From Nemertoderma westbladi (taxonomy: Eukaryota; Animalia; Xenacoelomorpha): a DNA stretch of 64,000 bases. Shown here one piece after another: positions 10,983 to 50,058 of the stretch (its first letter is position 1; every line of letters begins with the position of its first letter). The notes under the pieces are model-generated. The model was not told where the DNA came from, made no database searches, and worked only from the letters and a program-made list of their open reading frames with translations. Location: positions 95,770 through 159,769 of the forward strand of contig JAUCBJ010008094.1 in NCBI GenBank assembly GCA_032718475.1, in the 5' to 3' direction. Both the position numbers and the translations under genes were made by a program.

Positions 10983-11123
10983 GTTTCACAACCAGGGTTT
11001 AGTAGAAGTGAAACTTTTGGAAAAGTTACGATTATGTGATAAAGACGGGAGATACAACACAATCAGAATGGTAGATTATATGTACTTCAGAAACCATCTG
11101 TGCATAGTGTTTGATCTACTGGG
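10983..11123 (+). CDS. DYRK4: DYRK4-like kinase exon (subdomains III-V)
   Basis: ttttag|G..: [48 protein letters not shown]; donor GG|gtaatt. Confidence 0.9.
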
Positions 11124-11470: not shown

Positions 11471-12430
11471 TCGGTTTCGGAGAAGGAGCGGGTGTGCGGG
11501 GGCGGAATGAGACCATGGAGGAGACTCGGTTTCGGAGACGGAGCGGGGTGGAAGGAGACCATGGATGAGTCTCGGTTTCGGAGACGGAGCGGGGTGTGCG
11601 GGGGTGGAAGGAGACCATGGATGAGTCTCGGTTTTGGAGATGGAGCGGGGTGGAAGGAGACCATGGATGAGTCTCGGTTTTGGAGACGGAGCGGGGTGGA
11701 AGGAGACCATGGAGGAGTCTCGGATTTGGAGACGGAGCGGGGTGGAAGGAGACCATGGAGGAGTCTCGGTTTCGGAGAAGGAGCGGGGTGGAAGGAGACC
11801 ATGGATGAGTCTCGGTTTCGGAGATGGAGCAGGGGGTGGAAGGAGACCATAGAGGAGTCTCGGTTTCGGAGACGGAGCGGGGTGGAAGGAGACATGGATG
11901 AGTCTCGATTTCGGAGATGGAGCGGAGTGGAAGGAGACCATGGAGGAGTCTCGGTTTCGGAGACGGAGCGGGGTGGAAGGTAACCATGGATGAGTCTCGG
12001 TTTCGGAGACGGAGCGGGGTGGAAGGAGACCATGGATGAGTTTCGGTTTCGGAGACGGAGCGGGGTGGAAGGAGACCATGGATGAGTCTCGGTTTCGAAG
12101 ACGGAGCGGGGTGGAAGGAGACCATGGATGAGTCTCAGTTTCGGAGACAGAGCGGGGTGGAATGAGACCATGGCGGAGTCTCGGTTTTGGAGACGGAGCG
12201 GGGTGGAAGGAGACCATGGAGGAGTCTCGGTTTCGGAGACGGAGCGGGGTGGAAGGAGACCATGGAGGAGTCTTGGTTTCGGAGAAGGAGCGGGTGTGGT
12301 GCGGGGCGGAATGAGACCATGGAGGAAACTCGGTTTCGGAGACGGAGCGGGGTGGAAGGAGACCACGGAGGAGTCTCGGTTTCGGAGAAGGAGTGGGTGT
12401 GCGGGGGCGGAAAGAGACCATGGAGGAGAC
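11449..12430. repeat. 46-bp GC-rich minisatellite followed by poly-C tract
   Basis: Unit GGAAGGAGACCATGGATGAGTCTCGGTTTCGGAGACGGAGCGGGGT, about 20 copies; C run at about 12430-12448. Confidence 0.95.
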
Positions 12431-12503: not shown

Positions 12504-12642
12504 AATGAACCTCTATGAGTTAATGAAAAGGAATAATTTCCAAGGATTAACGATGAATCTGGTACGACGTTTTGCCTACTCCCTGCTACGATGTTTGGGA
12601 TTGCTATATGATGAACATATTGTTCATTGCGACTTAAAACCG
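12504..12642 (+). CDS. DYRK4: DYRK4-like kinase exon (to catalytic loop HCDLKP)
   Basis: ttctag|A ATG: MNLYELMKRNNFQGLTMNLVRRFAYSLLRCLGLLYDEHIVHCDLKP; HCDLKPEN is the DYRK signature; donor CCG|gtaggt. Confidence 0.93.
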
Positions 12643-15600
12643 GTAGGTGTAAGCCGACACTAACATCATTTAAAATCCGGTAAGTGTAAGCCGACACTAA
12701 CATCATCTACAATCCGGTAAGTGTAAGCCGACACTAACATCATCTACAATCCGGTAAGTGTAAGCCGTCCCTAACAACATCTACAATCCGGTAAGTGTAA
12801 GCCGACACTAACAACATCTACAATCCGGTAAGTGTAAGCCGACACTACCATCATCTACAATCCGGTAAGTGTAAGCCATCCCTACCATCATCTACAATCC
12901 GGTAAGTGTAAGCCGACACTACCATCATCTACAATCCGGTAAGTGTAAGCTGACACTAACAACATCTACAATCCGGTAAGTGTAAGCCGACACTACCATC
13001 ATCTACAATCCGGTAAGTGTAAGCCATCCCTACCATCATCTAAAATCCGGTAAGTGTAAGCCGACACTACCATCATCTACAATCCGGTAAGTGTAAGCCG
13101 ACACTACCATCATCTACAATCCGGTAAGTGTAAGCCATCCCTACCATCATCTAAAATCCGGTAAGTGTAAGCCGACACTACCATCATCTACAATCCGGTA
13201 AGTGTAAGCCGACACTACCATCATCTACAATCCGGTAAGTGTAAGCCATCCCTACCATCATCTAAAATCCGGTAAGTGTAAGCTGACACTAACAACATCT
13301 ACAATCCGGTAAGTGTAAGCCGACACTACCATCATCTACAATCCGGTAAGTGTAAGCCATCCCTACCATCATCTACAATCCGGTAAGTGTAAGCCGACAC
13401 TACCATCATCTACAATCCGGTAAGTGTAAGCCGACACTACCATCATCTACAATCCGGTAAGTGTAAGCCATCCCTACCATCATCTACAATCCGGTAAGTG
13501 TAAGCCGACACTAACAACATCTACAATCCAGTAAGTGTAAGCCGACACTACCATCATCTACAATCCGGTAAGTGTAAGCCGACACTACCATCATCTACAA
13601 TCCGGTAAGTGTAAGCCATCCCTACCATCATCTACAATCCGGTAAGTGTACGCCGACACTACCATCATCTACAATCCGGTAAGTGTAAGCTGACACTAAC
13701 AACATCTACAATCCGGTAAGTGTAAGCCGACACTACCATCATCTACAATCCGGTAAGTGTAAACCGACACTACCATCATCTACAATCTGGTAAGTGTAAG
13801 CCGACACTAACAACATCTACAATCCGGTAAGTGTAAGCCGACACTACCATCATTTACATTCCGGTAAGTGTAAACCATCCCTACCATCATCTACAATCCG
13901 GTAAGTGTAAGCCGACACTACCATCATCTACAATCCGGTAAATGTAAGCCGACACTAACAACATCTACAATCCAGTAAGTGTAAGCCGTCCCTAACAACA
14001 TCTACAATCCGGTAAGTGTAAGCCGACACTACCATCATCTACAATCCGGTAAGTGTAAACCATCCCTACCATCATCTACAATCCGGTAAGTGTAAGCCGA
14101 CACTACCATCATCTACAATCCGGTAAGTGTAAGCTGACACTAACAACATCTACAATCCGGTAAGTGTAAGCCGACACTACCATCATCTACAATCCGGTAA
14201 GTGTAAACCGACACTACCATCATCTACAATCCGGTAAGTGTAAGCCGTCCCTAACAACGTCTACAATCCGGTAAGTGTAAGCCGACACTAACAACATCTA
14301 CAATCCGGTAAGTGTAAACCATCCCTACCATCATCTACAATCCGGTAAGTGTAAGCCGACACTACCATCATCTACAATCCGGTAAGTGTAAGCCATCCCT
14401 ACCATCATCTACAATCCGGTAAGTGTAAGCCGTCCCTAACAACATCTACAATCCGGTAAGTGTAAGCCGACACTAACAACATCTACAATCCGGTAAGTGT
14501 AAACCGTCCCTAACAACATCTACAATCCGGTAAGTGTAAGCCGACACTAACAACATCTACAATCCGGTAAGTGTAAACCATCCCTACCATCATCTACAAT
14601 CCGGTAAGTGTAAGCCGACACTAACAACATCTACAATCCGGTAAGTGTAAGCTGACACTATACCATCATTTACAATCCGGTAAGTGTAAGCCGACACTAC
14701 CATCATTTACAATCCGGTAAGTGTAAACCATCCCTACCATCATCTACAATCCGGTAAGTGTAAGCCGTCCCTAACAACATCTACAATCCGGTAAGTGTAA
14801 GCCGACACTAACAACATCTACAATCCGGTAAGTGTAAGCTGACACTATACCATCATTTACAATCCGGTAAGTGTAAGCCGACACTACCATCATTTACAAT
14901 CCGGTAAGTGTAAACCATCCCTACCATCATCTACAATCCGGTAAGTGTAAGCCGACACTAACAACATCTACAATCCGGTAAGTGTAAGCCGACACTACCA
15001 TCATCTACAATCCGGTAAGTGTAAGCCATCGCTAACAACATCTACAATCCGGTAAGTGTAAACCGTCCCTAACAACATCTACAATCCGGTAAGTGTAAGC
15101 CGACACTACCATCATCTACAATCCGGTAAGTGTAAGCCGACACTACCATCATCTACAATCCGGTAAGTGTAAGCCATCCCTAACAACATCTACAATCCGG
15201 TAAGTGTAAGCCGACACTAACAACATCTACAATCCGGTAAGTGTAAACCATCACTACCATCATCTACAATCCGGTAAGTGTAAGCCGACACTAACATCAT
15301 CTACAATCCGGTAAGTGTAAGCCATCCCTAACAACATCTACAATCCGGTAAGTGTAAGCCGACACTAACAACATCTACAATCCGGTAAGTGTAAACCATC
15401 CCTACCATCATCTACAATCCGGTAAGTGTAAGCCGACACTAACATCATCTACAATCCGGTAAGTGTAAGCCGACACTAACAACATCTACAATCCGGTAAG
15501 TGTAAACCATCCCTACCATCATCTACAATCCGGTAAGTGTAAGCCGACACTACCATCATCTACAATCCGGTAAGTGTAAGCCATCCCTAACATCATCTAC

Positions 15601-15930
15601 AATCCGGTAAGTGTAAGCCGACACTACCATCATCTACAATCCGGTAAGTGTAAGCCATCCCTAACAACATCTACAATCCGGTAAGTGTAAGCCGACACTA
15701 CCATCATCTACAATCCGGTAAGTGTAAGCCATCCCTAACAATATCTACAATCCGGTAAGTGTAAGCCATCCCTAACATCATCTACAATCCGGTAAGTGTA
15801 AGCCATCCCTACCATCATCTACAATCCGTTAATTGTAAGCCGACACTACCATCATCTACAATCCGTTAAGTGTAAGCCGACACTAACAACATCTACAATC
15901 CAGTAAGTGTAAGCCAACCCTACAATGTAG
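12633..15930 (+). repeat. 37-bp minisatellite spanning the exon/intron donor junction
   Basis: Unit GTAAGTGTAAGCCGACACTACCATCATCTACAATCCG, about 88 copies. The first copy starts at the real donor and the unit end (TAAAATCCG/TACAATCCG) resembles the exon end TAAAACCG. Confidence 0.96.
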
Positions 15931-16014
15931 GGTAAATGTAAGCCAAGAATATACTGTATTATATACCTACCTGTAGTAATAAACCGTAGTACTCAGTTTC
16001 ACTTATATCTATAG

Positions 16015-16096
16015 GAAAATATTCTACTGAGACAGAGAGGAAGCAGTGCTATTACTGTTATTGACTTTGGGTCTAGTTGCTACGACAATCAAAAAG
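16015..16096 (+). CDS. DYRK4: DYRK4-like kinase exon (DFGSSC)
   Basis: ctatag|ENILLRQRGSSAITVIDFGSSCYDNQK G|gtaaat. Confidence 0.93.
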
Positions 16097-16142
16097 GTAA
16101 ATAATGGTTTAACAATTTATAAATAATTATCATTTAAACTCT

Positions 16143-16420
16143 GTAAAAGTAAAAGTAAATTTTCTTAGGCCGATAGGCCAGGGATTACGCACAAAGTCTG
16201 TCGACTTATTTCCAGTGCGGTCCCCCCAGAACTAAACTCCCCAAAGGAAACTCCGGTACTCATTTAGCTACCACTTAAGGATGCAAGGCGGAGATGCGCC
16301 CTGGCTGGTCCCTTTAAAGCATTCGTGCTGAAACGAAAACTGCCCTGGCCCATGTGAGGATCGAACCCACGACCTACGGGGGATGTGAATTCAATACAAC
16401 CACTACACCAAGGTGGGACC
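16143..16420 (-). mobile_element. tRNA-derived SINE
   Basis: Minus strand: GGTCCCACCTTGGTGTAGTGG (A box), GGTTCGATCC (B box, 16358-16367), internal AAATGAGTACC (16255-16265, like the conserved SINE central domains) and a (TTTAC)n-like tail. No intact cloverleaf was evident. Confidence 0.7.
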
Positions 16421-16466
16421 TAATCTGTGTAATATGTAACATAAATCTACATACAGTTAACCATGG

Positions 16467-16920
16467 CTACATAACTTACCTTTCTCCCTACAGTGTACAC
16501 CTACATAAGCTACTCTCCTCCCTACTGTGTACACCTACATAACTTACCTTTCTCCCTACAGTGTACACCTACATAACTTACCTTTCTCCATACAGTGTAC
16601 ACCTACATAAGCTACTCTCCTCCCTACTGTGTACACCTACATAACTTACCTTTCTCCCTTCAATGTACACCTAGATAACCTACCTTTTTCCCTACAATGT
16701 ACATCTGCTGTACATAACCTATCTGTCTCCATACAGTGTACACCTACATAACCAACCTGTCCCCCTACAGTGTACACCTACATAACCAACCTGTCCCCAT
16801 ACAGTGTACACCTACATAACCAACCTGTCCCCATACAGTGTACACCTACATAACCTACCTGTCTCCCTATAGTGTACACCTAGATAACCTACCTGTCTCC
16901 CTATAGTGTACACCTACATA
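16467..16920 (+). repeat. 34-bp minisatellite spanning the intron/exon acceptor junction
   Basis: Unit ACCTACCTGTCTCCCTA(C/T)AG|TGTACACCTACATA, about 13 copies; the last copy is the real acceptor plus exon start. Confidence 0.93.
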
Positions 16921-17140
16921 CAGTCCCGATTCTACCGATCACCTGAAATTATCCTCGGTTTATCGTACGGGAGACCAATCGACATGTGGAGTCTGGGATG
17001 TATTGTATCGGAACTCCATACAGGCAGACCGCTCTTCCCTGGAGAAAACGAGGCCGACCAGCTGTCCTGTATGATGGAATGTATGGGATTCCCACCAACT
17101 TCCGTAACAAAAGAGGCTTCCAGGAAACACGTATTCTTCG
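16907..17140 (+). CDS. DYRK4: DYRK4-like kinase exon (activation loop YTY, subdomains VIII-X)
   Basis: [61 protein letters not shown]...VFF G|gttaga. Confidence 0.95.
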
Positions 17141-17202
17141 GTTAGAAAAATCATTTCAGACAATGATTAATTATAATTTTTATTACACACATTAAATTTA
17201 TA

Positions 17203-19887
17203 CGGTGGTGATTTGTGGTCAATTAATTTTTTTTGTGATTTAAGATTGTGTTAATGAAATTATTATATCCGAAAATAAAATTAATATGTTTTAGAATCGA
17301 AAAAAGTATTTAATATGTTTTAACATTCAAAAAAGGAATGAATATGTTTTAACATTCAAAAAAGGAATTAATATGTTTTAACATCGATAATAATAATTAA
17401 TATGTTTTAACATCGATAATAATAATTAATATGTTTTAACATCGAAAATAATAATTAATATGTTTTAGAATCGAAAAAAGTATTTAATATGTTTTAACAT
17501 TCAAAAAAGGAATGAATATGTTTTAACATTCAAAAAAGGAATTAATATGTTTTAACATCGATAATAATAATTAATATGTTTTAACATCGATAATAATAAT
17601 TAATATGTTTTAACATCGATAATAATAATTAATATGTTTTAGCATCGGAAAAAGGAATTAATATGTTTTAGCATCGGAAAAAGGAATTAATATGTTTTAA
17701 CATCGAAAATAATAATTAATATGTTTTAACATCGATAATAATAATTAATATGTTTTAACATCGAAAATAATAATTAATATGTTTTAGCATCTGAAAAAGG
17801 AATTAATATGTTTTAACATCGATAATAATAATTAATATGTTTTAACATCCAAAATAATAATTAATATGTTTTAGCATCGATAATAATAATTAATATGTTT
17901 TAACATCGAAAATAATAATTAATATGTTTTAGCATCTGAAAAAGGAATTAGAGTAGGCCTAATATGTTTTAGCATCGAAAAAAGGTTTTAATAAGTTTTA
18001 ACATCCAAAATAATAATTAATATGTTTTAGCATCGGAAAAAGGAATTAATATGTTTTAACATCGATAATAATAATTAATATGTTTTAACATCGAAAATAA
18101 TAATTAATATGTTTTAGCATCGAAAAAAGGATTTAATAAGTTTTAACATCCAAAATAATAATTAATATGTTTTAGCATCGGAAAAAGGAATTAATATGTT
18201 TTAGCATTCAAAAAAGGAATTAATATGTTTTAACATCGAAAATAATAATTAATATGTTTTAGCATCGGAAAAAGGAATTAATATGTTTTAACATCGAAAA
18301 TAATAATAAATATGTTTTAGCATCGGAAAAAGGAATTAATATGTTTTAGCATTCAAAAAAGGAATTAATATGTTTTAGCATTCAAAAAAGGAATTAATAT
18401 GTTTTGGTGTTACTAAAAATAGATCTGATTGCTTATTTGTTTCTGCTAATCTGTTACTAACATGTTGTGAATTTATGTACCTACATAAACCTACAGTACC
18501 ACTTAGGTCATGATTTCAGTGTTCTTATCTTGTCCCATGATTGTTTAGGGTAGAAAAGTAAAGTGAAACCAAACGGATGTAAATATTACGCAGAAACCTG
18601 TGCATAACTAAGCCCAACTTATCACTCTTGGTTAATGCATTAGATATACTATATACTGTAGCATCGAAAAGAGACTGAACTAAAGTAAATTGAAATGTGA
18701 AAATTTTTTTAGCGTCCCTAGCGTTTCGTGTAAGATTTAAAAATTTCGCCAAAAAGACTAGGTACTCCTCCGTTATTTCCCATTTTCATTTTTCGATACT
18801 TCTATTCTTCGGCCACTTTTTTTATTTTCATTTTCTATTTCTGATAATTGGCAATTTTGTAAAAAAAAATTTTTAATTATTTTATAAAAATTGATTTTTT
18901 TAAAAAAATTGCGGAAATATTCTGAAATCAAAAAAGGTGGCCGAAGAATTAAATCTTATTCAAATTCCTTTCACAAAAAAAAGGTTAAGAAATGGCGGAG
19001 GAGTGTGTGTTTTTTGTGCGAAAAAATGTTATTCCCATTGAAGTTTGAACCTTCCCGCGCAAAAACTGTCTGTTAATATGTGATAATGTCTGTCAATATA
19101 TATCTAGCAACACGAAAGCACAAAACCATGATAAGATTTTAGCTATGGGGGTTTTCCTGGTCGCTGATTTAATTTCTAAGGTCATTTTTCAGTTTTAATG
19201 AAATCTAGATTGTCTGTATGTCTGTCTGTCGGTCTATCAGACTAACCGACAATCTGTCAAAAATATAAGGAAAGGGCGGATTTTCAAGCTAAAGGTTTAT
19301 CTCTAGGGGTTTTCAGGGTCGCAGAATCCATTTCGAGTGTCAGTTTTAACATTCATTTGATTCCAAATTGTCTGTTTGGCTATCAGACTGTCGGTTGTAT
19401 TTTGACGGACAGACTGACCGGCTTACAGACAGGAACGACGACGCCAAATTTAATTTTGATATTAGGAATGAAGTCACGAACCAAGAAAACCCATATTGGA
19501 AATTTTTTTAAAAAAATTTTAAATAGTATGAATTCTATTCTTTTGGAGACATACTGACGGACAGACCGACAGTAAAACGGACAAACAGCAATATCTCGAG
19601 AAGTAAGATAGATCTTGCTAAACGGTTTTCATATTTGGAATCTTGATTAAATTCTGCTCTAAATGGAATTTAAAAACATGTTAAAACATATTAATTCCTT
19701 TTTCCGATGCTAAAACATATTAATTATTATTTTCGATGTTAAAATATATTTATTATTATTTTCGATGTTAAAACATATTAATTCCCTTTTTCGATGCTAA
19801 ACCATATTAATTTTATTTTCGAATATAATAATTTCAATAACACAATTTTAAATTACAAAAAAATTAATTGGCCACAAATCACCACCG
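17203..19887. mobile_element. Non-autonomous DNA transposon with long TIRs, TA target duplication and 30-bp subterminal repeats
   Basis: TA|CGGTGGTGATTTGTGGTCAATTAATTT...AAATTAATTGGCCACAAATCACCACCG|TA. The 30-bp unit TTAATATGTTTTAACATCGAAAATAATAA spans about 17280-18405, with inverted copies at about 19675-19815. Confidence 0.88.
18763..19005. mobile_element. Small foldback/MITE inside the 17203-19887 element
   Basis: TACTCCTCCGTTATTT...AAATGGCGGAGGAGTG termini and internal inverted pair ATTCTTCGGCCACTTTTT / AAAAAGGTGGCCGAAGAAT; no TSD seen. Confidence 0.55.
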
Positions 19888-20036
19888 TACATTTATTTGA
19901 AAACGCGCATTTAATTATTTGATAACAAAATGTAGAAGTTTTATTTGCTTTATTAGTTTTATATTAAGTAGTTAGTTGCGCCTCCTAGTGGTCTTCGTTG
20001 GTATAATTTTTACAACAAATAAATATATTTCTTTAG

Positions 20037-20166
20037 ATTCGCAAGGAAAACCAAAATCGGTTACAAACAGCCGTGGGAGGAAGCGCATGATTGGTTGCAA
20101 GAAGCTGTGTCAGTTGGTCCGCAGTACAGACGTTTTATTCTTGGACTTCATACAAAAATGTCTTGA
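20037..20166 (+). CDS. DYRK4: DYRK4-like kinase exon (CMGC insert)
   Basis: ctttag|AT: DSQGKPKSVTNSRGRKRMIGCKKLCQLVRSTDVLFLDFIQKCLE; donor GA|gtaagt. Confidence 0.92.
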
Positions 20167-20302
20167 GTAAGTAAAAGTGGCTACAAACGGATTTGGTCCT
20201 CCTTTTGCTTTTATATAGGCCGTAGGCCTATTATTATTCTTTTATATTGAACTTTTTATTTAGTTTTGTCTTCCATATAATATTTAACATTAATTAATAC
20301 AG

Positions 20303-20424
20303 ATGGGACGCGGATTCGAGAATGACTCCAGCTGAAGGACTGCAACACCCCTGGATAAATGAGGGAAGACGGTTGCACCGGGAGAATATGAGTCTATCCC
20401 GTCAGTCAGATACTAAAAGGAGAG
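20303..20424 (+). CDS. DYRK4: DYRK4-like kinase exon (subdomain XI)
   Basis: atacag|A TGG: WDADSRMTPAEGLQHPWINEGRRLHRENMSLSRQSDTKRR G|gtagga. Confidence 0.9.
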
Positions 20425-23400
20425 GTAGGAACAGTCAGATACTAAAGGGAGGGCTTGGTTGGAACAGTCAGATACTAAAGGGAGGGCTTGGTTGGAACAG
20501 TCAGATACTAAAGGGAGGGGTTGGAACAGTCAGATACTAAAGGGGTTGGAACAGTCAGATACTAAAGGGGTTGGAACAGTCAGATACTAAAGTTGGAACA
20601 TTCAGATACTAAAGGGAGGGCTTGGTTGGAACAGTCAGATACTAAAGGGAGGGGTTGGTTGGAACAGTCAGATACTAAAGGGAGGGGTTGGTTGGAACAG
20701 TCAGATACTAAAGGGGGGGCTTGGTTGGAACAGTCAGATACTAAAGGGAGGGGTTGGTTGGAACAGTCAGATACTAAAGGGGGGGTTGGTTGGAACAGTC
20801 AGATACTAAAGGGGGGGTTGGTTGGAACAGTCAGATACTAAAGGGAGGGGTTGGTAGGAACAGTCAGATACTAAAGGGGTTGGAACAGTCAGATACTAAA
20901 GGGGTTGGAACAGTCAGATACTAAAGTTGGAACATTCAGATACTAAAGGGAGGGCTTGGTTGGAACAGTCAGATACTAAAGGGAGGGGTTGGTTGGAACA
21001 GTCAGATACTAAAGGGAGGGGTTGGTAGGAACAGTCAGATACTAAAGGGGGGGCTTGGTTTGAACAGTCAGATACTAAAGGGAGGGGTTGGTAGGAACAG
21101 TCAGATACTAAAGGGGGGGTCAGATACTAAAGGGAGGGGTTGGAACAGTCAGATACTAAAGGGAGGGGTTGGTTGGAACAGTCAGATACTAAAGGGGGGG
21201 TTGGTTGGAACAGTCAGATACTAAAGGGAGGGGTTGGTAGGAACAGTCAGATACTAAAGGGAGGGGTTGGTTGGAACAGTCAGATACTAAAGGGGTTGGA
21301 ACAGTCAGATACTAAAGGGGTTGGAACAGTCAGATACTAAAGTTGGAACATTCAGATACTAAAGGGAGGGCTTGGTTGGAACAGTCAGATACTAAAGGGA
21401 GGGGTAGGTAGGAACAGTCAGATACTAAAGGAGTTGGAACAGTCAGATACTAAAGGGAGGGGTAGGAGGAATATTCAGATACTAAGGGGAGGGGTAGGAA
21501 CATTCAGATACTAAAGGAGTTGGAACGGTCTGATACTAAAGGGAGGGGTAGGTAGGAACAGTCAGATACTAAAGGAGTTGGAACAGTCAGATACTAAAGG
21601 GAGGGCTTGGTTTGAACAGTCAGATACTAAAGGGAGGGGTTGGAACAGTCAGATACTAAAGGGAGGGGTTGGTAGGAACAGTCAGATATTAAAGGGAGGG
21701 CTTGGTTGGAACAGTCTGATATTAAAGGGAGGGCTTGGTTGGAACAGTCAGATACTAAAGGGAGGGCTTGGTTGGAACAGTCAGATACTAAAGTTGGAAC
21801 ATTCAGATACTAAAGGGAGGGCTTGGTAGGAACAGTCAGATACTAAAGGGAGGGGTTGGAAGGAACAGTCAGATACTAAAGTTGGAACATTCAGATACTA
21901 AAGGGAGGGGTAGGTAGGAACAGTCAGATACTAAAGGGAGGGGTTGGAAGGAACAGTCAGATACTAAAGTTGGAACATTCAGATACTAAAGGGAGGGGTA
22001 GGTAGGAACAGTCAGATACTAAAGGGAGGGGTTGGTAGGAACAGTCAGATACTAAAGGGAGGGCTTGGTTGGAACAGTCAGATACTAAAGGGAGGGGTTG
22101 GAACAGTCAGATACTAAAGGGGTTGGAACAGTCAGATACTAAAGGGGTTGGAACAGTCAGATACTAAAGTTGGAACATTCAGATACTAAAGGGAGGGGTA
22201 GGAGGAATATTCAGATACTAAGGGGAGGGGTAGGAACATTCAGATACTAAAGGAGTTGGAACAGTCAGATACTAAAGGGAGGGGTTGGTTGGAACAGTCA
22301 GATATTAAAGGGAGGGCTTGGTTGGGACAGTCAGATACTAAAGGGGGGGGGTTGGAACAGTCAGATACTAAAGGGAGGGGTTGGTTGGAACAGTCAGATA
22401 TTAAAGGGAGGGGTTGGAAGGAACAGTCAGATACTAAAGGAGTTGGAACAGTCAGATACTAAAGGGAGGGGTTGGTTGGAACAGTCAGATACTAAAGGGA
22501 GGGGTTGGTTGGAACAGTCAGATATTAAAGGGAGGGCTTGGTTGGGACAGTCAGATACTAAAGGGGGGGGGGGGGGGTTGGAACAGTCAGATACTAAAGG
22601 GAGGGGTAGGTAGGAACAGTCAGATACTAAAGGAGTTGGAACAGTCAGATACTAAAGGGAGGGGTTGGTTGGAACAGTCAGATACTAAAGGGAGGGGTTG
22701 GTTGGAACAGTCAGATATTAAAGGGAGGGCTTGGTTGGGACAGTCAGATACTAAAGGGGGGGGGGTTGGAACAGTCAGATACTAAAGGGAGGGGTTGGTA
22801 GGAACAGTCAGATATTAAAGGGAGGGCTTGGTTGGAACAGTCTGATATTAAAGGGAGGGCTTGGTTGGAACAGTCAGATACTAAAGGGAGGGCTTGGTTG
22901 GAACAGTCAGATACTAAAGTTGGAACATTCAGATACTAAAGGGAGGGCTTGGTAGGAACAGTCAGATACTAAAGGGAGGGGTTGGAAGGAACAGTCAGAT
23001 ACTAAAGTTGGAACATTCAGATACTAAAGGGAGGGGTAGGTAGGAACAGTCAGATACTAAAGGGAGGGGTTGGTAGGAACAGTCAGATACTAAAGTTGGA
23101 ACATTCAGATACTAAAGGGAGGGGTAGGTAGGAACAGTCAGATACTAAAGGGAGGGGTTGGTAGGAACAGTCAGATACTAAAGGGAGGGGTTGGAAGGAA
23201 CAGTCAGATACTAAAGGGAGGGGTTGATAGGAACAGTCCGATATTAAAGGGAGGGCTTGGTTGGAACAGTCAGATACTAAAGGGAGGGGTAGGTAGGAAC
23301 AGTCAGATACTAAAGGGAGGGGTTGGAAGGAACAGTCAGATACTAAAGTTGGAACATTCAGATACTAAAGGAAGGGGTAGGTAGGAACAGTCAGATACTA

Positions 23401-26400
23401 AAGGGAGGGGTTGGAAGGAACAGTCAGATACTAAAGGGAGGGGTTGGTAGGAACAGTCAGATACAAAAGGGAGGGGTTGGTAGGAACAGTCAGATACTAA
23501 AGGGAGGGGTTGGAAGGAACAGTCAGATACTAAAGGGAGGGCTTGGTTGGAACAGTCAGATACTAAAGGGAGGGCTTGGTTGGAACAGTCAGATACTAAA
23601 GGGAGGGCTTGGTTGGAACAGTCAGATACTAAAGGGAGTGGTTGGTTGGAACAGTCAGATACTAAAGGGAGGGGTTGGTAGGAACAGTCAGATACTAAAG
23701 GGGGGGTCAGATACTAAAGGGAGGGGTTGGAACAGTCAGATACTAAAGGAGTTGGAACGGTCTGATACTAAAGGGAGGGGTAGGTAGGAACAGTCAGATA
23801 CTAAAGGAGTTGGAACAGTCAGATACTAAAGGGAGGGCTTGGTTTGAACAGTCAGATACTAAAGGGAGGGGTTGGAACAGTCAGATACTAAAGGGAGGGG
23901 TTGGTAGGAACAGTCAGATATTAAAGGGAGGGCTTGGTTGGAACAGTCTGATATTAAAGGGAGGGCTTGGTTGGAACAGTCAGATACTAAAGGGAGGGCT
24001 TGGTTGGAACAGTCAGATACTAAAGTTGGAACATTCAGATACTAAAGGGAGGGCTTGGTAGGAACAGTCAGATACTAAAGGGAGGGGTTGGAAGGAACAG
24101 TCAGATACTAAAGTTGGAACATTCAGATACTAAAGGGAGGGGTAGGTAGGAACAGTCAGATACTAAAGGGAGGGGTTGGAAGGAACAGTCAGATACTAAA
24201 GTTGGAACATTCAGATACTAAAGGGAGGGGTAGGTAGGAACAGTCAGATACTAAAGGGAGGGGTTGGTAGGAACAGTCAGATACTAAAGGGAGGGGTTGG
24301 AACATTCAGATACTAAAGGGAGGGCTTGGTTGGAACAGTCAGATACTAAAGGGAGGGGTTGGTTGGAACAGTCAGATATTAAAGGGAGGGCTTGGTTGGA
24401 ACAGTCAGATACTAAAGGGAGGGGTTGGAACAGTCGATACTAAAGGGAGGACTTGGTTGGAACAGTCAGATACTAAAGGGAGGGGTTGGTAGGAACAGTC
24501 AGATACTAAAGGGGGGGTCAGATACTAAAGGGAGGGGTTGGAACAGTCAGATACTAAAGGGAGGGCTTGGTTGGAACAGTCAGATACTAAAGGGAGGGGT
24601 TGGAAGGAACAGTCAGATACTAAAGGGAGGGGTTGGTAGGAACAGTCAGATATTAAAGGGAGGGCTTGGTTGGAACAGTCAGATACTAAAGGGAGGGCTT
24701 GGTTGGAACAGTCAGATACTAAAGGGAGGGCTTGGTTGGAACAGTCAGATACTAAAGGGAGGGGTTGGTAGGAACAGTCAGATACTAAAGGGGGGGCTTG
24801 GTTGGAACAGTCAGATACTAAAGGGCGGGGTTGGTTGGAACAGTCAGATACTAAAGGGAGGGCTTGGTTGGAACAGTCAGATACTAAAGGAAGGGGTTGG
24901 TTGGAACAGTCAGATACTAAAGGGAGGGTTGGTTGGAACAGTCAGATACTAAAGGGGTTGGAACAGTCAGATACTAAAGGGAGGGCTTGGTAGGAACAGT
25001 CAGATACTAAAGGGACAGACAGATACTAAAGGGAGGGATTGGTAGGAACAATCAGATACTAAAGGGAGGGGTTGGAAGGAACAGTCAGATACTAAAGGGG
25101 GGCTTGGTTGGAACAGTCAGATACTAAAGGGAGGGGTTGGAACAGTCAGATACTAAAGGGAGGGCTTGGTTGGAACAGTCAGATACTAAAGGGAGGGGTT
25201 GGTTGGAACAGTCAGATACTAAAGGGAGGGGTTGGTAGGAACAGTCAGATACTAAAGGGAGGGCTTGGTTGGAACAGTCAGATACTAAAGGGAGGGGTTG
25301 GTAGGAACAGTCAGATACTAAAGGGAGGGCTTGGTTGGAACAGTCAGATACTAAAGGGAGGGGTTGGAACAGTCAGATACTAAAGGGAGGGCTTGGTTGG
25401 AACAGTCAGATACTAAAGGGAGGGGTTGGTAGGAACAGTCAGATACTAAAGGGAGGGCTTGGTTGGAACAGTCAGATACTAAAGGGAGGGGTTGGTAGGA
25501 ACAGTCAGATACTAAAGGGAGGGCTTGGTTGGAACAGTCAGATACTAAAGGGCGGGGTTGGTTGGAACAGTCAGATACTAAAGGGAGGGGTTGGTAGGAA
25601 CAGTCAGATATTAAAGGGAGGGCTTGGTTGGAACAGTCAGATACTAAAGGGAGGGGTTGGTTGGAACAGTCAGATACTAAAGGGAGGGGTTAGTAGGAAC
25701 AGTCAGATACTAAAGGGAGGGCTTGGTTGGAACAGTCAGATACTAAAGGGAGGGGTTGGTAGGAACAGTCAGATACTAAAGGGAGGGCTTGGTTGGAACA
25801 GTCAGATACTAAAGGGAGGGGTTGGTAGGAACAGTCAGATATTAAAGGGAGGGCTTGGTTGGAACAGTCAGATATTAAAGGGAGGGCTTGGTTGGAACAG
25901 TCAGATACTAAAGGGAGGGGTTGGAACAGTCAGATACTAAAGGGAGGGCTTGGTTGGAACAGTCAGATACTAAAGGGAGGGGTTGGTAGGAACAGTCAGA
26001 TACTAAAGGGAGGGCTTGGTTGGAACAGTCAGATACTAAAGGGAGGGGTTGGAACAGTCAGATACTAAAGGGAGGGCTTGGTTGGAACAGTCAGATACTA
26101 AAGGGAGGGGTTGGTAGGAACAGTCAGATACTAAAGGGAGGGCTTGGTTGGAACAGTCAGATACTAAAGGGAGGGGTTGGTAGGAACAGTCAGATACTAA
26201 AGGGAGGGCTTGGTTGGAACAGTCAGATACTAAAGGGCGGGGTTGGTTGGAACAGTCAGATACTAAAGGGAGGGGTTGGTAGGAACAGTCAGATATTAAA
26301 GGGAGGGCTTGGTTGGAACAGTAAGATACTAAAGGGAGGGGTTGGTTGGAACAGTCAGATACTAAAGTTGGAACAGTCAGATACTAAAGGGAGGGGTTAG

Positions 26401-29400
26401 TAGGAACAGTCAGATACTAAAGGGAGGGCTTGGTTGGAACAGTCAGATACTAAAGGGAGGGGTTGGTAGGAACAGTCAGATACTAAAGGGAGGGCTTGGT
26501 TGGAACAGTCAGATACTAAAGGGAGGGCTTGGTTGGAACAGTCAGATACTAAAGGGAGGGGTTGGTAGGAACAGTCAGATACTAAAGGGAGGGCTTGGTT
26601 GGAACAGTCAGATACTAAAGGGAGGGGTTGGAACATTCAGATACTAAAGGGAGGGCTTGGTTGGAACAGTCAGATACTAAAGGGAGGGGTTGGTTGGAAC
26701 AGTCAGATATTAAAGGGAGGGCTTGGTTGGAACAGTCAGATACTAAAGGGAGGGGTTGGAACAGTCAGATACTAAAGGGAGGACTTGGTTGGAACAGTCA
26801 GATACTAAAGGGAGGGGTTGGTAGGAACAGTCAGATACTAAAGGGAGGGCTTGGTTGGAACAGTCAGATACTAAAGGGAGGGGTTGGAACAGTCCGATAC
26901 TAAAGGGAGGGCTTGGTTGGAACAGTCAGATACTAAAGGGAGGGGTTGGTTGGAACAGTCAGATACTAAAGGGAGGGCTTGGTTGGAACAGTCAGATACT
27001 AAAGGGAGGGGTTGGTAGGAACAGTCAGATATTAAAGGGCGGGGTTGGTTGGAACAGTCAGATACTAAAGGGAGGGCTTGGTTGGAACAGTCAGATACTA
27101 AAGGGAGGGGTTGGTTGGAACAGTCAGATACTAAAGGGAGGGGTTGGTAGGAACAGTCAGATATTAAAGGGAGGGCTTGGTTGGAACAGTCAGATACTAA
27201 AGGGAGGGGTTGGTAGGAACAGTCAGATACTAAAGGGAGGGCTTGGTTGGAACAGTCAGATACTAAAGGGAGGGGTTGGTTGGAACAGTCAGATATTAAA
27301 GGGAGGGCTTGGTTGGAACAGTCAGATACTAAAGGGAGGGCTTGGTTGGAACAGTCAGATACTAAAGGGAGGGCTTGGTTGGAACAATCAGATACTAAAG
27401 GGAGGGGTTAGTAGGAACAGTCAGATACTAAAGGGAGGGCTTGGTTGGAACAGTCAGATATTAAAGGGAGGGCTTGGTTGGAACAGTCAGATATTAAAGG
27501 GAGGGCTTGGTTGGAACAGTCAGATACTAAAGGGCGGGGTTGGTTGGAACAGTCAGATATTAAAGCGAGGGCTTGGTTGGAACAGTCAGATACTAAAGGG
27601 CGGGGTTGGTTGGAACAGTCAGATACTAAAGGGAGGGCTTGGTTGGAACAGTCAGACACTGAAGGGAGGGGTTGGTAGGAACAGTCAGATACTAAAGGGA
27701 GGGCTTGGTTGGAACAGTCAGATACTAAAGGGAGGGGTTGGAACAGTCAGATACTAAAGGGAGAGCTTGGTTGGAACAGTCAGATACTAAAGGGAGGGCT
27801 TGGTAGGAATAGTCAGATATTAAAGGGAGGGCTTGGTTGGAACAGTCAGATACTAAAGGGAGGGGTTGGTTGGAACAGTCAGATACTAAAGGGAGGGCTT
27901 GGTTGGAACAGTCAGATACTAAAGGGAGGGCTTGGTTGGAACAGTCAGATACTAAAGGGAGGGGTTGGTAGGAACAGTCAGATACTAAAGGGAGGGCTTG
28001 GTTGGAACAGTCAGATACTAAAGGGAGGGGTTGGAACATTCAGATACTAAAGGGAGGGCTTGGTTGGAACAGTCAGATACTAAAGGGAGGGGTTGGTTGG
28101 AACAGTCAGATATTAAAGGGAGGGCTTGGTTGGAACAGTCAGATACTAAAGGGAGGGGTTGGAACAGTCAGATACTAAAGGGAGGACTTGGTTGGAACAG
28201 TCAGATACTAAAGGGAGGGGTTGGTAGGAACAGTCAGATACTAAAGGGAGGGCTTGGTTGGAACAGTCAGATACTAAAGGGAGGGGTTGGAACAGTCAGA
28301 TACTAAAGGGAGGGTTTGGTTGGAACAGTCAGATACTAAAGGGAGGGGTTGGTTGGAACAGTCAGATACTAAAGGGAGGGGTTGGTAGGAACAGTCAGAT
28401 ATTAAAGGGAGGGGTTGGTTGGAACAGTCAGATACTAAAGGGCGGGGTTGGTTGGAACAGTCAGATATTAAAGGGAGGGCTTGGTTGGAACAGTCAGATA
28501 TTAAAGGGAGGGCTTGGTTGGAACAGTCAGATACTAAAGGGCGGGGTTGGTTGGAACAGTCAGATACTAAAGGGAGGGCTTGGTTGGAACAGTCAGATAC
28601 TAAAGGGAGGGGTTGGTTGGAACAGTCAGATACTAAAGGGAGGGGTTGGAACAGTCAGATACTAAAGGGGTTGGAACAGTCAGATACTAAAGGGAGGGCT
28701 TGGTAGGAACAGTCAGATACTAAAGGGACAGACAGATACTAAAGGGAGGGATTGGTAGGAACAATCAGATACTAAAGGGAGGGGTTGGAACAGTCAGATA
28801 CTAAAGAGAGGGGTTGGAAGGAACAGTCAGATGCTAAAGGGGCTTGGTTGGAACAGTCAGATACTAAAGGGAGGGCTTGGTTGGAACAGTCAGATATTAA
28901 AGGGAGGGGTTGGTTGGAACAGTCAGATACTAAAGGGAGGGCTTGGTTGGAACAGTCAGATACTAAAGGGAGGGGTTGGTAGGAACAGTTAGATACTAAA
29001 GGGGGGTTCAGATACTAAAGGGAGGGGTTGGTAGGAACAGTCAGATATTAAAGGGAGGGCTTGGTTGGAACAGTCAGATACTAAAGGGAGGGGTTGGTTG
29101 GAACAGTCAGATACTAAAGGGGGGGTCAGATACTAAAGGGAGGGGTTGGTAGGAACAGTCAGATATTAAAGGGAGGGCTTGGTTGGAACAGTCAGATACT
29201 AAAGGGAGGGGTTGGTTGGAACAGTCAGATACTAAAGGGAGGGGTTGGTTGGAACAGTCAGATACTAAAGGGAGGGGTTGGAACAGTCAGATACTAAAGG
29301 GAGGGGTTGGAACAGTCAGATACTAAAGGGAGGGCTTGGTTGGAACAGTCAGATACTAAAGGGAGGGGTTGGTAGGAACAGTCAGATACTAAAGGGAGGG

Positions 29401-32400
29401 CTTGGTTGGAACAGTCAGATACTAAAGGGAGGGGTTGGTTGGAACAGTCAGATACTAAAGGGGGGGTCAGATACTAAAGGGAGGGGTTGGTAGGAACAGT
29501 CAGATATTAAAGGGAGGGCTTGGTTGGAACAGTCAGATACTAAAGGGAGGGGTTGGTTGGAACAGTCAGATACTAAAGGGAGGGGTTGGTTGGAACAGTC
29601 AGATACTAAAGGGAGGGGTTGGTAGGAACAGTCAGATACTAAAGGGAGGGCTTGGTTGGAACAGTCAGATACTAATAAAGGGAGGGGTTGGTAGGAACAG
29701 TCAGATATTAAAGGGAGGGCTTGGTTGGAACAGTCAGATATTAAAGGGAGGGCTTGGTTGGAACAGTCAGATACTAAAGGGAGGGGTTGGAACAGTCAGA
29801 TACTAAAGGGAGGGCTTGGTTGGAACAGTCAGATACTAAAGGGAGGGGTTGGTAGGAACAGTCAGATACTAAAGGGAGGGCTTGGTTGGAACAGTCAGAT
29901 ACTAAAGGGAGGGGTTGGAACAGTCAGATACTAAAGGGAGGGCTTGGTTGGAACAGTCAGATACTAAAGGGAGGGGTTGGTAGGAACAGTCAGATACTAA
30001 AGGGAGGGGTTGGAACAGTCAGATACTAAAGGGAGGACTTGGTTGGAACAGTCAGATACTAAAGGGAGGGGTTGGTAGGAACAGTCAGATACTAAAGGGA
30101 GGGCTTGGTTGGAACAGTCAGATACTAAAGGGAGGGGTTGGAACAGTCAGATACTAAAGGGAGGGCTTGGTTGGAACAGTCAGATACTAAAGGGAGGGGT
30201 TGGTTGGAACAGTCAGATACTAAAGGGAGGGGTTGGTTGGAACAGTCAGATACTAAAGGGCGGGGTTGGTTGGAACAGTCAGATATTAAAGGGAGGGCTT
30301 GGTTGGAACAGTCAGATATTAAAGGGAGGGCTTGGTTGGAACAGTCAGATACTAAAGGGCGGGGTTGGTTGGAACAGTCAGATACTAAAGGGAGGGCTTG
30401 GTTGGAACAGTCAGATACTAAAGGGAGGGGTTGGTTGGAACAGTCAGATACTAAAGGGAGGGGTTGGTAGGAACAGTCAGATACTAAAGGGAGGGCTTGG
30501 TTGGAACAGTCAGATACTAAAGGGAGGGGTTGGTAGGAACAGTCAGATATTAAAGGGAGGGCTTGGTTGGAACAGTCAGATACTAAAGGGAGGGTTGGTT
30601 GGAACAGTCAGATACTAAAGGGAGGGCTTGGTTGGAACAGTCAGATACTAAAGGGAGGGGTTGGTTGGAACAGTCAGATACTAAAGGAGGGCTTGGTTGG
30701 AACAGTCAGATACTAAAGGGAGGGGTTGGTAGGAACAGTCAGATATTAAAGGGAGGGCTTGGTTGGAACAGTCAGATACTAAAGGGAGGGGTTGGTTGGA
30801 ACAGTCAGATATTAAAGGGAGGGCTTGGTTGGAACAGTCAGATACTAAAGGGAGGGGTTGGAACAGTCAGATACTAAAGGGAGGGCTTGGTTGGAACAGT
30901 CAGATACTAAAGGGAGGGGTTGGTAGGAACAGTCAGATACTAAAGGGAGGGCTTGGTTGGAACAGTCAGATACTAAAGGGAGGGGTTGGAACAGTCAGAT
31001 ACTAAAGGGAGGGCTTGGTTGGAACAGTCAGATACTAAAGGGAGGGGTTGGTAGGAACAGTCAGATATTAAAGGGAGGGCTTGGTTGGAACAGTCAGATA
31101 CTAAAGGGAGGGGTTGGTTGGAACAGTCAGATATTAAAGGGAGGGCTTGGTTGGAACAGTCAGATACTAAAGGGAGGGGTTGGAAGGAACAGTCAGATAC
31201 TAAAGGGAGGGGTTGGAACAGTCAGATACTAAAGGGAGGGCTTGGTTGGAACAGTCAGATACTAAAGGGAGGGGTTGGTAGGAACAGTCAGATACTAAAG
31301 GGAGGGCTTGGTTGGAACAGTCAGATACTAAAGGGAGGGGTTGGAACAGTCAGATACTAAAGGGAGAGCTTGGTTGGAACAGTCAGATACTAAAGGGAGG
31401 GCTTGGTAGGAACAGTCAGATATTAAAGGGAGGGCTTGGTTGGAACAGTCAGATACTAAAGGGAGGGGTTGGTAGGAACAGTCAGATACTAAAGGGAGTG
31501 GTTGGTTGGAACAGTCAGATATTAAAGGGAGGGCTTGGTTGGAACAGTCAGATACTAAAGGGCGGGGTTGGTTGGAACAGTCAGATACTAAAGGGAGGGG
31601 TTGGAACAGTCAGATACTAAAGGGAGGGCTTGGTTGGAACAGTCAGATACTAAAGGGAGGGGTTGGTAGGAACAGTCAGATATTAAAGGGAGGGGTTGGT
31701 TGGAACAGTCAGATACTAAAGGGAGGGGTTGGAACAGTCAGATACTAAAGGGAGGGCTTGGTTGGAACAGTCAGATACTAAAGGGAGGGGTTGGTAGGAA
31801 CAGTCAGATATTAAAGGGAGGGGTTGGTTGGAACAGTCAGATACTAAAGGGAGGGGTTGGAACAGTCAGATACTAAAGGGAGGGCTTGGTTGGAACAGTC
31901 AGATACTAAAGGGAGGGGTTGGTAGGAACAGTCAGATATTAAAGGGAGGGGTTGGTTGGAACAGTCAGATATTAAAGGGAGGGCTTGGTTGGAACAGTCA
32001 GATACTAAAGGGCGGGGTTGGTTGGAACAGTCAGATACTAAAGGGAGTGGTTGGTTGGAACAGTCAGATACTAAAGGGAAGGGTTGGTAGGAACAGTCAG
32101 ATACTAAAGGGGGGGTCAGATACTAAAGGGAGGGGTTGGAACAGTCAGATACTAAAGGAGTTGGAACAGTTATATACTAAAGGAGTTGGAACAGTCAGAT
32201 ACAAAAGGGAGAGGAACAGTCAGATACTAAAGGGAGGTGTAGGAACAGTCAGATACTAAAGGGAGGTGTAGGAACAGTCAGATACTAAAGGGAGGGGTTG
32301 GAACAGTCAGATACTAAAGGGAGTGGTTGGTTGGAACAGTCAGATACTAAAGGGAAGGGTTGGTAGGAACAGTCAGATACTAAAGGGGGGGTCAGATACT

Positions 32401-32536
32401 AAAGGGAGGGGTTGGAACAGTCAGATACTAAAGGAGTTGGAACAGTTATATACTAAAGGAGTTGGAACAGTCAGATACAAAAGGGAGAGGAACAGTCAGA
32501 TACTAAAGGGAGGTGTAGGAACAGTCAGATACTAAT
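20403..32536 (+). repeat. 12-kb G-rich 29/33-bp minisatellite derived from the exon end plus donor
   Basis: Unit CAGTCAGATACTAAAGGGAGGG(G/C)TTGG(T/TA)..GGAA versus the genomic junction CAGTCAGATACTAAAAGGAGAG|GTAGGAA; several hundred copies with 21-, 24-, 29- and 33-bp variants. Confidence 0.97.
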
Positions 32537-32619
32537 GGGGGAATATGGACAGTCTTCGGACCTGATATTTGTTCATTTTAATGTTGATTTCCTTCATAAT
32601 AATATACATTATTACACGA

Positions 32620-34821
32620 CTAAACTAGACTGTTCCAAAAATTAGTTTTCGTTTTAAAACACGCCCATCTATGCTCGCGACGGCTTATCGGAACACCATT
32701 ATCTATCTTCAACGTAAACATAGGATTTTTAAAGTCGCTCTTGTCGCCATAGGCAACATGTAGATGGTTCCCATGGAGATTAACAACACCCATAGTCAGA
32801 GGAGGCAGGGCGATGTCAAACACAGGAGGATCGAGCCAATGTTTACAGGTGAACTCGACTCGATTACAGACGTTCCAGATCTTCGGACCGAGTTGATGGA
32901 ACACCAGTTGGTTCCATCCGAGTGCGTCGTTACTGACGAACCGGCACCCGGCGCCGCTCATAATAGCCCCGTAGACGACATACCCGTCGTCATAGACATC
33001 GTTGGGGACCAGGAAGTACTCACAGTCGGTGCCCTCCACGGACCACTGCATGTGCCGCCGTGTCACAATGAGAATCCGCGACCCGCCTCCGTCGCCCCGG
33101 AGCTGATGCGCTCGTCGCAAGGCTCGCACCAACGCAACCATCTTACCGGGTCCGTACGGACCTCGATGTTCGCCGTACTCGTATTTCGTTAGCTTCCCTC
33201 TCGTTAATCCAACATGCGAATTCGATCCGCAGTACTGCACATTCAGTCCGTCTATGATGTAGTCGTATTTGGGGTCAGCGTCGTTAATAAACTGGTGGAA
33301 CTCATCGAATACTCGAAGAGATCTTCCTCTTCTATCCTCGATTGTCGCCGCTTTCCCGGGCACCGATTTAGGTACGAATATATCCGATCTCATCTTCGCC
33401 AACATCGATTCCAGAAGGTCTGAAGTTATCAGTTGGTCCGGCGTCGGTAGAGGGGCGTCGCAGAATCGGCATCGAGTCGACGCGTCCTGCACGCTCCGGT
33501 TTATTTGCGGTTCGTTCGCCAAACCAGAACCCACGAGGGAGCTGATGAGCAGCGGGAAACTCCTCTCGTCGAATAAGTAACCGGTTTTCCGCCAATGGGT
33601 GAACAGATGAGAAAGAATGTAACGCCGTAACTCGGTAGGAAGATTGGTCTGTAGGAAAATGGGGCTTTGTTCGGAAGCACTATGGACTGAAGGTTGAAGG
33701 ACTCGCAAAGACATATCCACCATGGATTTAGCTGCATCCGGGTCGGTGTGTTTCGAAGCAGTTTCAGCGACAAGGAGTAGAAGACGACTGCTAACAGACT
33801 GAGTCGGAATGTGAGTGTCGATCTCCGCTCGAACTTTCTCAAACTTATCGATAAGTTCGATGGATTTCCTCCAATGGGAATCGAGTTCGCATAGAAAAGG
33901 CACAGCTACGGAGAGAATACCGATATTGACAGGAAGACCAACATTATTATAATCTTCCAAAGCCTTCAAAAATGTTTCATTATCATTCTGTTTAACCAAG
34001 AACCTGAAGTAAATGGCATAAAGTTGGTTGAGATTACCTCCCGGTACTTCCTCGCTATTGGTAGAGAGGTACGAAATTAACCAGGTCAGACTGTGTTTGT
34101 ATCCCAAGACGGAAAAACATTCAGCGAGTAAGGACAACCATCCTGCATGTTGGCGTCCTTTCATTGCCCCCGAGAGCAGCTCCGGATCCTTATATTTTTC
34201 CTCGTCTAGATTGTCTTCCGGTAACACCGCCTGTAAATAAATCGCTGATTGCTCTGTCGTCTTTAATAGGTCTTCCGATTTAATTTCTTCTTCGGTTTCT
34301 TCATCAGCGACAAGCGGTTGATTGTTTCGGAATGGTTTACGGTGATGCTGGTAAGGTTTCCTTTGGCTTTGGCTAGGAGACATATAGTATGGTTCATATT
34401 TACTTGGCATATGGTATGATGGTTCCCTTTGGTACCGGTACTGTTTGTTTTCGAGTTTGTATTGGTCCTTTCTATTTGGTTCGTTTTTATTTTGTTGAGA
34501 TTCGTATTGGCCATGGTTTGGTTTCCGTTTTCTATAAATTTCGTTTGGGTAGAGATTGCTTTGATTCGGGTTTTCTCTTTGCTTGGAATAAGATGCAAAT
34601 ATCTGTGAGTTTTGTAGTGATGGCCGTAACAGTAACTTGTGGTCCCGCTGAACATGGAAGTGCGTACTAATACAAAGCATTGCGTTTGGCGGATTAATTG
34701 AATGAAAATTATGAAAATACTTAGAGGTGAAACCACCGATCAATCGATTACTATTACCGATACAAATACTCTTCATCGAGGTTTTGATCACTGCTCCAGA
34801 AACATTGAGTTTGTGAAACAT
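32620..34821 (-). CDS. PRORP: Mitochondrial proteinaceous RNase P catalytic subunit (MRPP3), intronless, nested in DYRK intron
   Basis: 733 aa. Basic, acid-poor N-terminus (transit-peptide-like), helical PPR-like region, CRFC plus HLH and WAC zinc ligands, NYN motifs YIIDGLNV, YDDGYVVYGAIMSG, CRFVSND. Candidate ATTAAA poly(A) signal at 32577-32582 (minus). Confidence 0.9.
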   Translation of the reverse strand: MFHKLNVSGAVIKTSMKSICIGNSNRLIGGFTSKYFHNFHSINPPNAMLCISTHFHVQRDHKLLLRPSLQNSQIFASYSKQRENPNQSNLYPNEIYRKRKPNHGQYESQQNKNEPNRKDQYKLENKQYRYQREPSYHMPSKYEPYYMSPSQSQRKPYQHHRKPFRNNQPLVADEETEEEIKSEDLLKTTEQSAIYLQAVLPEDNLDEEKYKDPELLSGAMKGRQHAGWLSLLAECFSVLGYKHSLTWLISYLSTNSEEVPGGNLNQLYAIYFRFLVKQNDNETFLKALEDYNNVGLPVNIGILSVAVPFLCELDSHWRKSIELIDKFEKVRAEIDTHIPTQSVSSRLLLLVAETASKHTDPDAAKSMVDMSLRVLQPSVHSASEQSPIFLQTNLPTELRRYILSHLFTHWRKTGYLFDERSFPLLISSLVGSGLANEPQINRSVQDASTRCRFCDAPLPTPDQLITSDLLESMLAKMRSDIFVPKSVPGKAATIEDRRGRSLRVFDEFHQFINDADPKYDYIIDGLNVQYCGSNSHVGLTRGKLTKYEYGEHRGPYGPGKMVALVRALRRAHQLRGDGGGSRILIVTRRHMQWSVEGTDCEYFLVPNDVYDDGYVVYGAIMSGAGCRFVSNDALGWNQLVFHQLGPKIWNVCNRVEFTCKHWLDPPVFDIALPPLTMGVVNLHGNHLHVAYGDKSDFKNPMFTLKIDNGVPISRREHRWACFKTKTNFWNSLV

Positions 34822-35985: not shown

Positions 35986-35994
35986 GCATGATGC

Positions 35995-50040: not shown

Positions 50041-50058
50041 GCTGTGATAATTTTTTCC

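Follow-up and report, generated by a model that had tools for sequence, protein, structure and literature searches.

Junction-spanning minisatellites in two, and likely three, introns of a DYRK4-like kinase gene of Nemertoderma westbladi

A DYRK4-like kinase gene in the 64-kb window (the whole stretch of DNA that was analyzed) possesses two introns, and likely a third, that have been enlarged to up to 20 kb by minisatellites overlapping an exon–intron junction. The repeat units of two of these arrays carry the edge of the adjoining exon together with its splice signal, at junctions fixed by homology; the unit of the third array probably does the same, at a junction placed by donor comparison. 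An earlier note on this DNA, made from the letters alone, had described three such arrays in the introns of one gene, and the presence of the arrays and their intronic position in one gene are borne out by Tandem Repeats Finder (periods of 37, 34, and 33) and by the gene model.

Results

Gene model and setting

Tandem arrays (18 after merging) make up 59.7% of the window. The array-bearing gene lies on the plus strand and is an intact DYRK4-like kinase gene, for which we built a model of seven exons (A–G) with GT–AG at every intron. Queries with 13 of the 120 listed proteins in tblastn gave six exon matches. The first five junctions are gapless at the junction in alignments with 12 homologues, one of which stops short of the fifth, and all five use the exon-nearest sites. 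No exons 5′ of exon A were found in the window by tblastn. Exons and junction arrays are as follows (window positions, strand, description, basis).

10983–11123, plus: exon A, first exon in the window (tblastn, gapless junction alignment)
12504–12642, plus: exon B, with the catalytic-loop proline at its end, donor at 12643 in phase 0 (tblastn, junction alignment)
12633–15958, plus: array 1, 37-bp donor-spanning minisatellite, ∼89 copies (Tandem Repeats Finder, unit/exon comparison)
16015–16096, plus: exon C, DFG motif (tblastn, junction alignment)
16467–16920, plus: array 2, 34-bp acceptor-spanning minisatellite, 13 copies (Tandem Repeats Finder, unit/exon comparison)
16907–17140, plus: exon D, activation loop onward (protein and structure matches, tblastn, junction alignment)
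20037–20166, plus: exon E (tblastn, junction alignment)
20303–20424, plus: exon F, start fixed by homology, probable end at 20424, alternative end at 20400 (tblastn, alignment, donor comparison)
20403–32539, plus: array 3, 29/33-bp minisatellite of 12.1 kb, ∼350–377 copies (Tandem Repeats Finder, donor and unit comparison)
40368–40471, plus: exon G, predicted last coding exon, phase 1 (C-terminal motif, frame)

Exon D (16909–17139 in frame) matches DYRK2/3/4 proteins, with a top identity of 75% among the 120 listed, and its best structure matches are those of DYRK3 and DYRK2. The kinase motifs and the YxY of the activation loop are present, and the best matches of the gene are DYRK2/3/4, i.e. 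class 2 of the DYRK kinases. Within this class, DYRK4 would be favored over DYRK2 by the names of the matches, the large number of introns, and the motif at the C-terminus. The motif in question, FLPPI, is found in exon G three residues before the stop; of the four matches to the motif in the six frames of the window, this is the only one so placed. In 26 of the 120 listed homologues, an FLPPI-like motif lies within the final 45 residues.

Upstream of exon A, a single-exon open reading frame on the minus strand (8458–9819) encodes a CBM_21 domain (Pfam, E 1.7e-21) followed by a hydrophobic C-terminal stretch. It resembles a glycogen-targeting PP1 subunit, and the DYRK4 intron that precedes exon A likely contains it in antisense orientation. 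A 39/21-bp compound array (1–8126, at least 8.1 kb) is likely also contained in a DYRK4 intron. The array ends against a minus-strand donor-like site near 8128, and its unit does not copy the preceding sequence.

Junction arrays

Array 1 comprises 88.6 copies of a 37-mer between 12640 and 15923 (90% match, Tandem Repeats Finder) and a degenerate tail that extends to 15958. It accounts for 3316 of the 3372 bases of intron B–C (98%), so that 93 nt would be left if the array were collapsed. Gapless homology fixes the donor at 12643. One gap is needed to align the first copy with the final 9 bases of the exon, a match equaled by 3 of 3000 random coding stretches. For the consensus copy, ∼6 exon bases are matched (three of them exact at the junction), and 124 of 3000 controls are as good. 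The unit of about 10 nt of exon end plus donor that had been proposed from the letters alone therefore holds for the first copy and not for the consensus copy.

The array contains 86 donor-like sites, of which the first is the real donor (CCG/GTAGGT, with the slash at the junction). The remaining 85 are decoys with the sequences CCG/GTAAGT (81 copies), CCA/GTAAGT (3 copies), and CCG/GTAAAT (1 copy). By a simple count against the donor consensus, the 81 decoys pair with U1 at 9 positions plus 1 wobble, compared with 8 plus 2 for the real donor. Read-through of exon B meets a stop at 12661, so any distal donor of array 1 would take in this stop. None of the nine common unit variants falls into the 9-nt donor block (P ∼0.056), which is near-invariant across the 83 full copies; therefore, there is no sign that decoys have been purged.

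In array 2, the 34-mer (13.2 copies between 16467 and 16920, 86% match, Tandem Repeats Finder) consists of 20 intron bases and 14 exon bases. All 14 exon bases are exact and the acceptor at 16907 is fixed by homology, which confirms the earlier reading of this unit as 20 nt of acceptor plus 14 nt of exon. Two of 3000 controls matched as well, and these are probably self-hits (the control pool contained exon D). The array makes up 54% of intron C–D, which would measure 404 nt in the collapsed state. A branch-like TAAC is located 22 bases before the real acceptor and is included in most copies; therefore, a complete 3′ site is predicted for each decoy of array 2. The AG is kept in 8 of the 12 upstream copies and lost in the other 4, and the frame from each of the 12 upstream acceptor positions is closed by a stop before exon D ends. 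The array has the 7-nt repeat CTACATA at each end, as would be expected of a seed formed by slippage or end-joining.

A protein scan of metagenome loci (80 of 544 kept, best identity 71%) bears on the age of the two introns. The position of intron C–D is common to 28 of the 80 loci, another 47 are intronless at this position, and 5 could not be determined; the 3′ end of exon D is common to all six loci inspected. As the position of intron C–D is shared with distant relatives, the intron is older than array 2, and we rejected the arrays as creators of the intron in this case. The position of intron B–C was found in one locus (L026). The exact 24-nt exon D pattern was present in 0 metagenome stretches, and thus no second allele or close relative was recovered there. 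Tandem Repeats Finder on the 80 loci returned 33 rows with a period of at least 10, none longer than ∼160 nt; loci this distant cannot be used as a control.

Array 3 comprises 376.7 copies of a 33-mer between 20403 and 32392 (83% match, Tandem Repeats Finder) and continues to 32539. It makes up 61% of the 19.9-kb intron F–G, which additionally contains a nested open reading frame and an inverted-repeat element and would collapse to ∼500 nt. The junction of exon F and this intron falls in the unconserved tail of the protein, beyond the constraint of homology, and eight GT sites are in phase 1 and stop-free (20392, 20401, 20425, 20434, 20458, 20467, 20491, and 20500). With 20425 as the donor, 22 exon and 7 intron bases make up the first unit, as the earlier note had it, and 0 of 3000 controls were as good. 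The donor at 20425 has the best U1 match (7 + 1), followed by 20401 (6 + 0), with 5 + 2 at 20458 (copy 2) and 20491 (copy 3), and its 9-mer occurs only once in the array. On these grounds, array 3 likely spans the donor at 20425. At the donor-equivalent position of 347 units, at least 237 read GTTGGA and ∼85 read GTAGGA; therefore, the proposed real site is stronger than most decoys of array 3.

Alternatively, 20400 is the last base of exon F, with only two intron bases ahead of the array, or exon F is the terminal exon and continues into the array as far as the stop at 20538. We consider such an off-junction placement rather unlikely. The donor at 20401 is in phase, stop-free, and only one U1 match short of 20425, and it would place array 3 wholly in the intron, merely abutting the junction; yet no other in-frame donor matches as well as 20425, and a terminal exon F is opposed by exon G with its conserved C-terminal motif. 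An off-junction array 3 would leave only two junction arrays and is compatible with the explanation that we prefer for arrays 1 and 2 (see “Discussion”).

For arrays 1 and 2, frame and homology predict that the exon-nearest site is spliced. The claim that the frame-compatible site is always the copy nearest the exon thus stands for these two arrays, where distal sites lead to stops, and does not extend to array 3, with its eight candidate donors. Likewise, “decoy array” is an apt term for arrays 1 and 2 and only in part for array 3, most copies of which carry a weakened donor.

How often arrays would overlap junctions by chance was estimated by collapsing each array to one unit and taking a surviving seed to be either wholly intronic or junction-spanning. 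The collapsed introns measure about 93–517 nt, and the junction-overlapping share of surviving seeds is 0.52 in intron B–C. With all 10 arrays of the six mapped introns counted, 0.35 arrays are expected at junctions (P(≥3) 0.004, P(≥2) 0.045). The expectation is 0.81 for the four arrays outside inserted elements (P(≥3) 0.027, P(≥2) 0.18), and 0.94 if the null is conditioned on the own intron of each array (P(≥3) 0.028, P(≥2) 0.21). This excess is a hint of enrichment in a window that was chosen for the pattern and with ancestral intron lengths that are estimates.

Other repeats and elements of the window

Seven of the 10 arrays in the mapped introns do not span a junction, among them the 29-mer and 12-mer arrays of the gene. 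A GC-rich 46-bp array (11440–12428) occupies most of intron A–B and lies off the junction, with a poly-C end ∼55 nt before the acceptor. Intron D–E contains a foldback-like element (17195–19895) with inverted arms that are themselves 29-bp tandem arrays (39 copies left, 5 right). In the last DYRK4 intron, ∼80 nt past the 12-kb array, a 740-codon open frame on the minus strand (32620–34842) is nested antisense and has a partial match to PRORP, the protein-only RNase P (Pfam, E 2.8e-6, below the curated cut-off). Positions 34918–40031 are occupied by a 5.1-kb element with perfect 30-nt terminal inverted repeats, inside which are a 12-bp array, a degenerate 40–52-bp array, two nested inverted-repeat pairs, and putative open frames at 38000–38976.

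A transposon origin of the three junction units was considered and rejected on the basis of the 64-kb window, where each unit has 0 matches outside its own array, in contrast to the 29-mer of intron D–E, which is part of an inverted-repeat element. The description of the three units as unrelated to each other is likewise sustained.

In a neighboring gene, a 40-bp array (52435–55003, plus strand, 63 copies) lies 3′ of a signal-peptide-like first exon (51057–51148), with a 12-bp array directly 5′. Its unit consists of an acceptor-like AG and 10 bases of a candidate exon (54994–55073), for which no Pfam match was found. Only the last of the 62 acceptor-like copies joins stop-free to the signal-peptide-like exon; the chance of such a stop-free stretch is 17%. 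The 40-mer array may represent a fourth junction array, with the exon being putative. A crude exon scan for further arrays at junctions yielded no reliable exons in the window.

The rest of the window holds a 35-bp and then a 44-bp array (49076–50041) with a unit that we take to resemble a tRNA T-arm/B-box; ARAGORN found no tRNA in these arrays. A 4.7-kb array of a 27-mer (41804–46505) is tied to no mapped exon. Further along are a broken, LINE-like reverse-transcriptase remnant (56286–57498, RVT_1 matches, Pfam), by eye a partial second copy of the LINE-like 3′ end that is interrupted by 21-bp arrays (57920–59300), and near the window end a C2H2 zinc-finger exon on the minus strand (62133–62972, Pfam).

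Discussion

The earlier note knew of no description at this density, but the phenomenon has been reported and named. In amphioxus Adh3 and globins, “mirages” were found at 5′ as well as 3′ boundaries, splicing being apparently undisturbed, and their mechanism was called unclear (PMC3087553). Troponin C and two arrays in PGBD5 were added later (PMC3902484), and lancelet PGBD5 thus also provides a precedent for more than one array per gene. The arrays of the globins BflGb6 and BflGb9 and of PGBD5 comprise 2–7 copies, compared with 13, ∼89, and ∼350–377 copies and up to 12 kb here. Normal splicing and length polymorphism have been demonstrated in amphioxus, whereas the DYRK4-like arrays are known from sequence alone.

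Human genes offer close parallels. In F7, a 37-bp VNTR consists of 4 exon and 33 intron bases, the first copy spans the boundary and is followed by pseudo-donors, and in 50 constructs the most upstream donor was chosen unless the decoys were perfect; 6-16, CBS, LAMIN B2 (LMNB2), and PDGF are listed there as similar VNTRs (PMC1557585). Array 1 resembles F7 in its 37-bp unit and boundary-spanning first copy, and in F7 it is the most upstream donor that is used. F7 has 5–9 identical copies versus ∼89 in array 1, and, unlike in F7, the decoys of array 1 match U1 better than the real donor. The 31-bp VNTR of CBS intron 13, c.1444_1467+7(16_21), consists of 24 exon and 7 intron bases in 16–21 copies (PMC2630376), an anatomy near the 22 + 7 proposed for array 3. 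CBS 844ins68 is a single duplication of the junction between intron 7 and exon 8 in which the exon-side site is favored (PMC2630376), as is predicted for array 2.

We regard it as probable that the arrays are minisatellites of the mirage type, i.e. chance duplications of junctions in once-short introns that were tolerated because of exon-nearest splicing and then grew by ordinary expansion. The seed may have arisen by slippage or end-joining between short repeats, such as the 7-nt repeat at both ends of array 2. The geometry suggests that duplication of a donor would place the first copy behind an intact exon, and duplication of an acceptor the last copy before it. With the exon-nearest site in use, the mRNA would be unchanged and the duplication hidden from selection, while exon-only duplications would be purged. 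As the introns are short, a large share of the surviving seeds would overlap a junction. Exon-proximal choice is known for donors in mammals from the F7 minigenes and is presumed here, and leaks in arrays 1 and 2 would lead to premature stops and clearance by nonsense-mediated decay. Unequal exchange or conversion would then homogenize the inner copies and leave the exon-side copy as the divergent edge. Arrays would have enlarged old introns and not created them, as the loci described above indicate for intron C–D and, by one locus, for intron B–C. The Rogers model, in which introns are gained when proto-splice sites are duplicated in tandem (PMC3087553 and PMC2812944), likewise invokes internal tandem duplication of splice-signal sequence, and differs in that the C–D array grew in an old intron. 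The route of junction-spanning duplication, amplification, and exon-proximal choice put forward in the earlier note fits this anatomy and the F7 experiments (PMC1557585). Nothing in these data needs a new mechanism.

Several observations count against this explanation. The decoys of array 1 pair better with U1 than the real donor, their donor block is free of the nine common unit variants (P ∼0.056), and perfect decoys did compete in F7 (PMC1557585). Furthermore, three junction arrays exceed the null (P(≥3) 0.004–0.028), with a further candidate at 54994 in the neighboring gene, which leaves room for a junction bias. Such a bias would arise if breaks or slippage favored exon–intron boundaries, e.g. 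as a result of pausing linked to the spliceosome, of RNA:DNA hybrids, or of composition steps, and enriched seeds beyond what survival explains. It would account for the junction position of 3 of the gene's 10 arrays (3 of 4 when those within inserted elements are set aside), and the amphioxus paper does call the generating mechanism unclear (PMC3087553). However, the window was picked for its pattern, P rises to 0.045–0.21 without array 3, the null is strongly sensitive to the assumed ancestral intron length, and many arrays of the window have no junction link. We therefore think junction-targeted mutation unlikely. Of the two causes that the earlier note had weighed, neutral survival is the better supported, given the short collapsed introns, a window that is 60% array, and the 7 of 10 arrays off junctions.

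The arrays might instead have a function as splice decoys and adjust the output of DYRK4, either by sending part of its transcripts into premature stops or, in the case of array 3, by lengthening the tail by 11 or 22 residues. The near-invariant donor block of array 1, stronger than the real donor, would agree with this, as would the two in-frame distal donors of array 3 and the use of the two nearest pseudo-sites in human 6-16 and CBS (PMC1557585). Yet the invariance is borderline and expected from recent homogenization, and both the loss of AG from a third of the acceptor decoys and the predominance of GTTGGA in array 3 speak against maintained function, which makes this reading very improbable. 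That the arrays or their lengths are assembly artifacts appears more improbable still. Exact internal repeats of 210 nt (array 1) and 560 nt (array 3) could mislead an assembler on copy number, but the copies are diverged (83–90% match), many variant types are interspersed, and the edge copies differ from the inner ones, features that collapse or expansion errors do not make.

A bolder proposal, to which we give little credence, holds that this lineage makes small duplications preferentially at junctions, that exon-proximal choice is strict against ∼80 stronger donors and 12-kb decoy fields, and that the arrays are among the chief means by which introns and the genome grow. A genome-wide enrichment at junctions beyond survival bias would point to a splicing-linked mutational process, which is more than one selected window can show. 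No genome-wide test of junction enrichment was found in the literature searched, most subscription papers being outside its coverage.

What is unusual in the DYRK4-like gene is the size of the arrays and the 81 decoy donors that outmatch the real one, the kind of repeat being already known. Junction arrays can mislead gene predictors. The gene provides a large and clean example of a named but little-studied type of repeat, and a natural test of splice-site choice, in which one real donor is followed by 81 better-matching decoys in array 1 and the real acceptor of array 2 is preceded by 8 complete decoys, each with a predicted branch motif.
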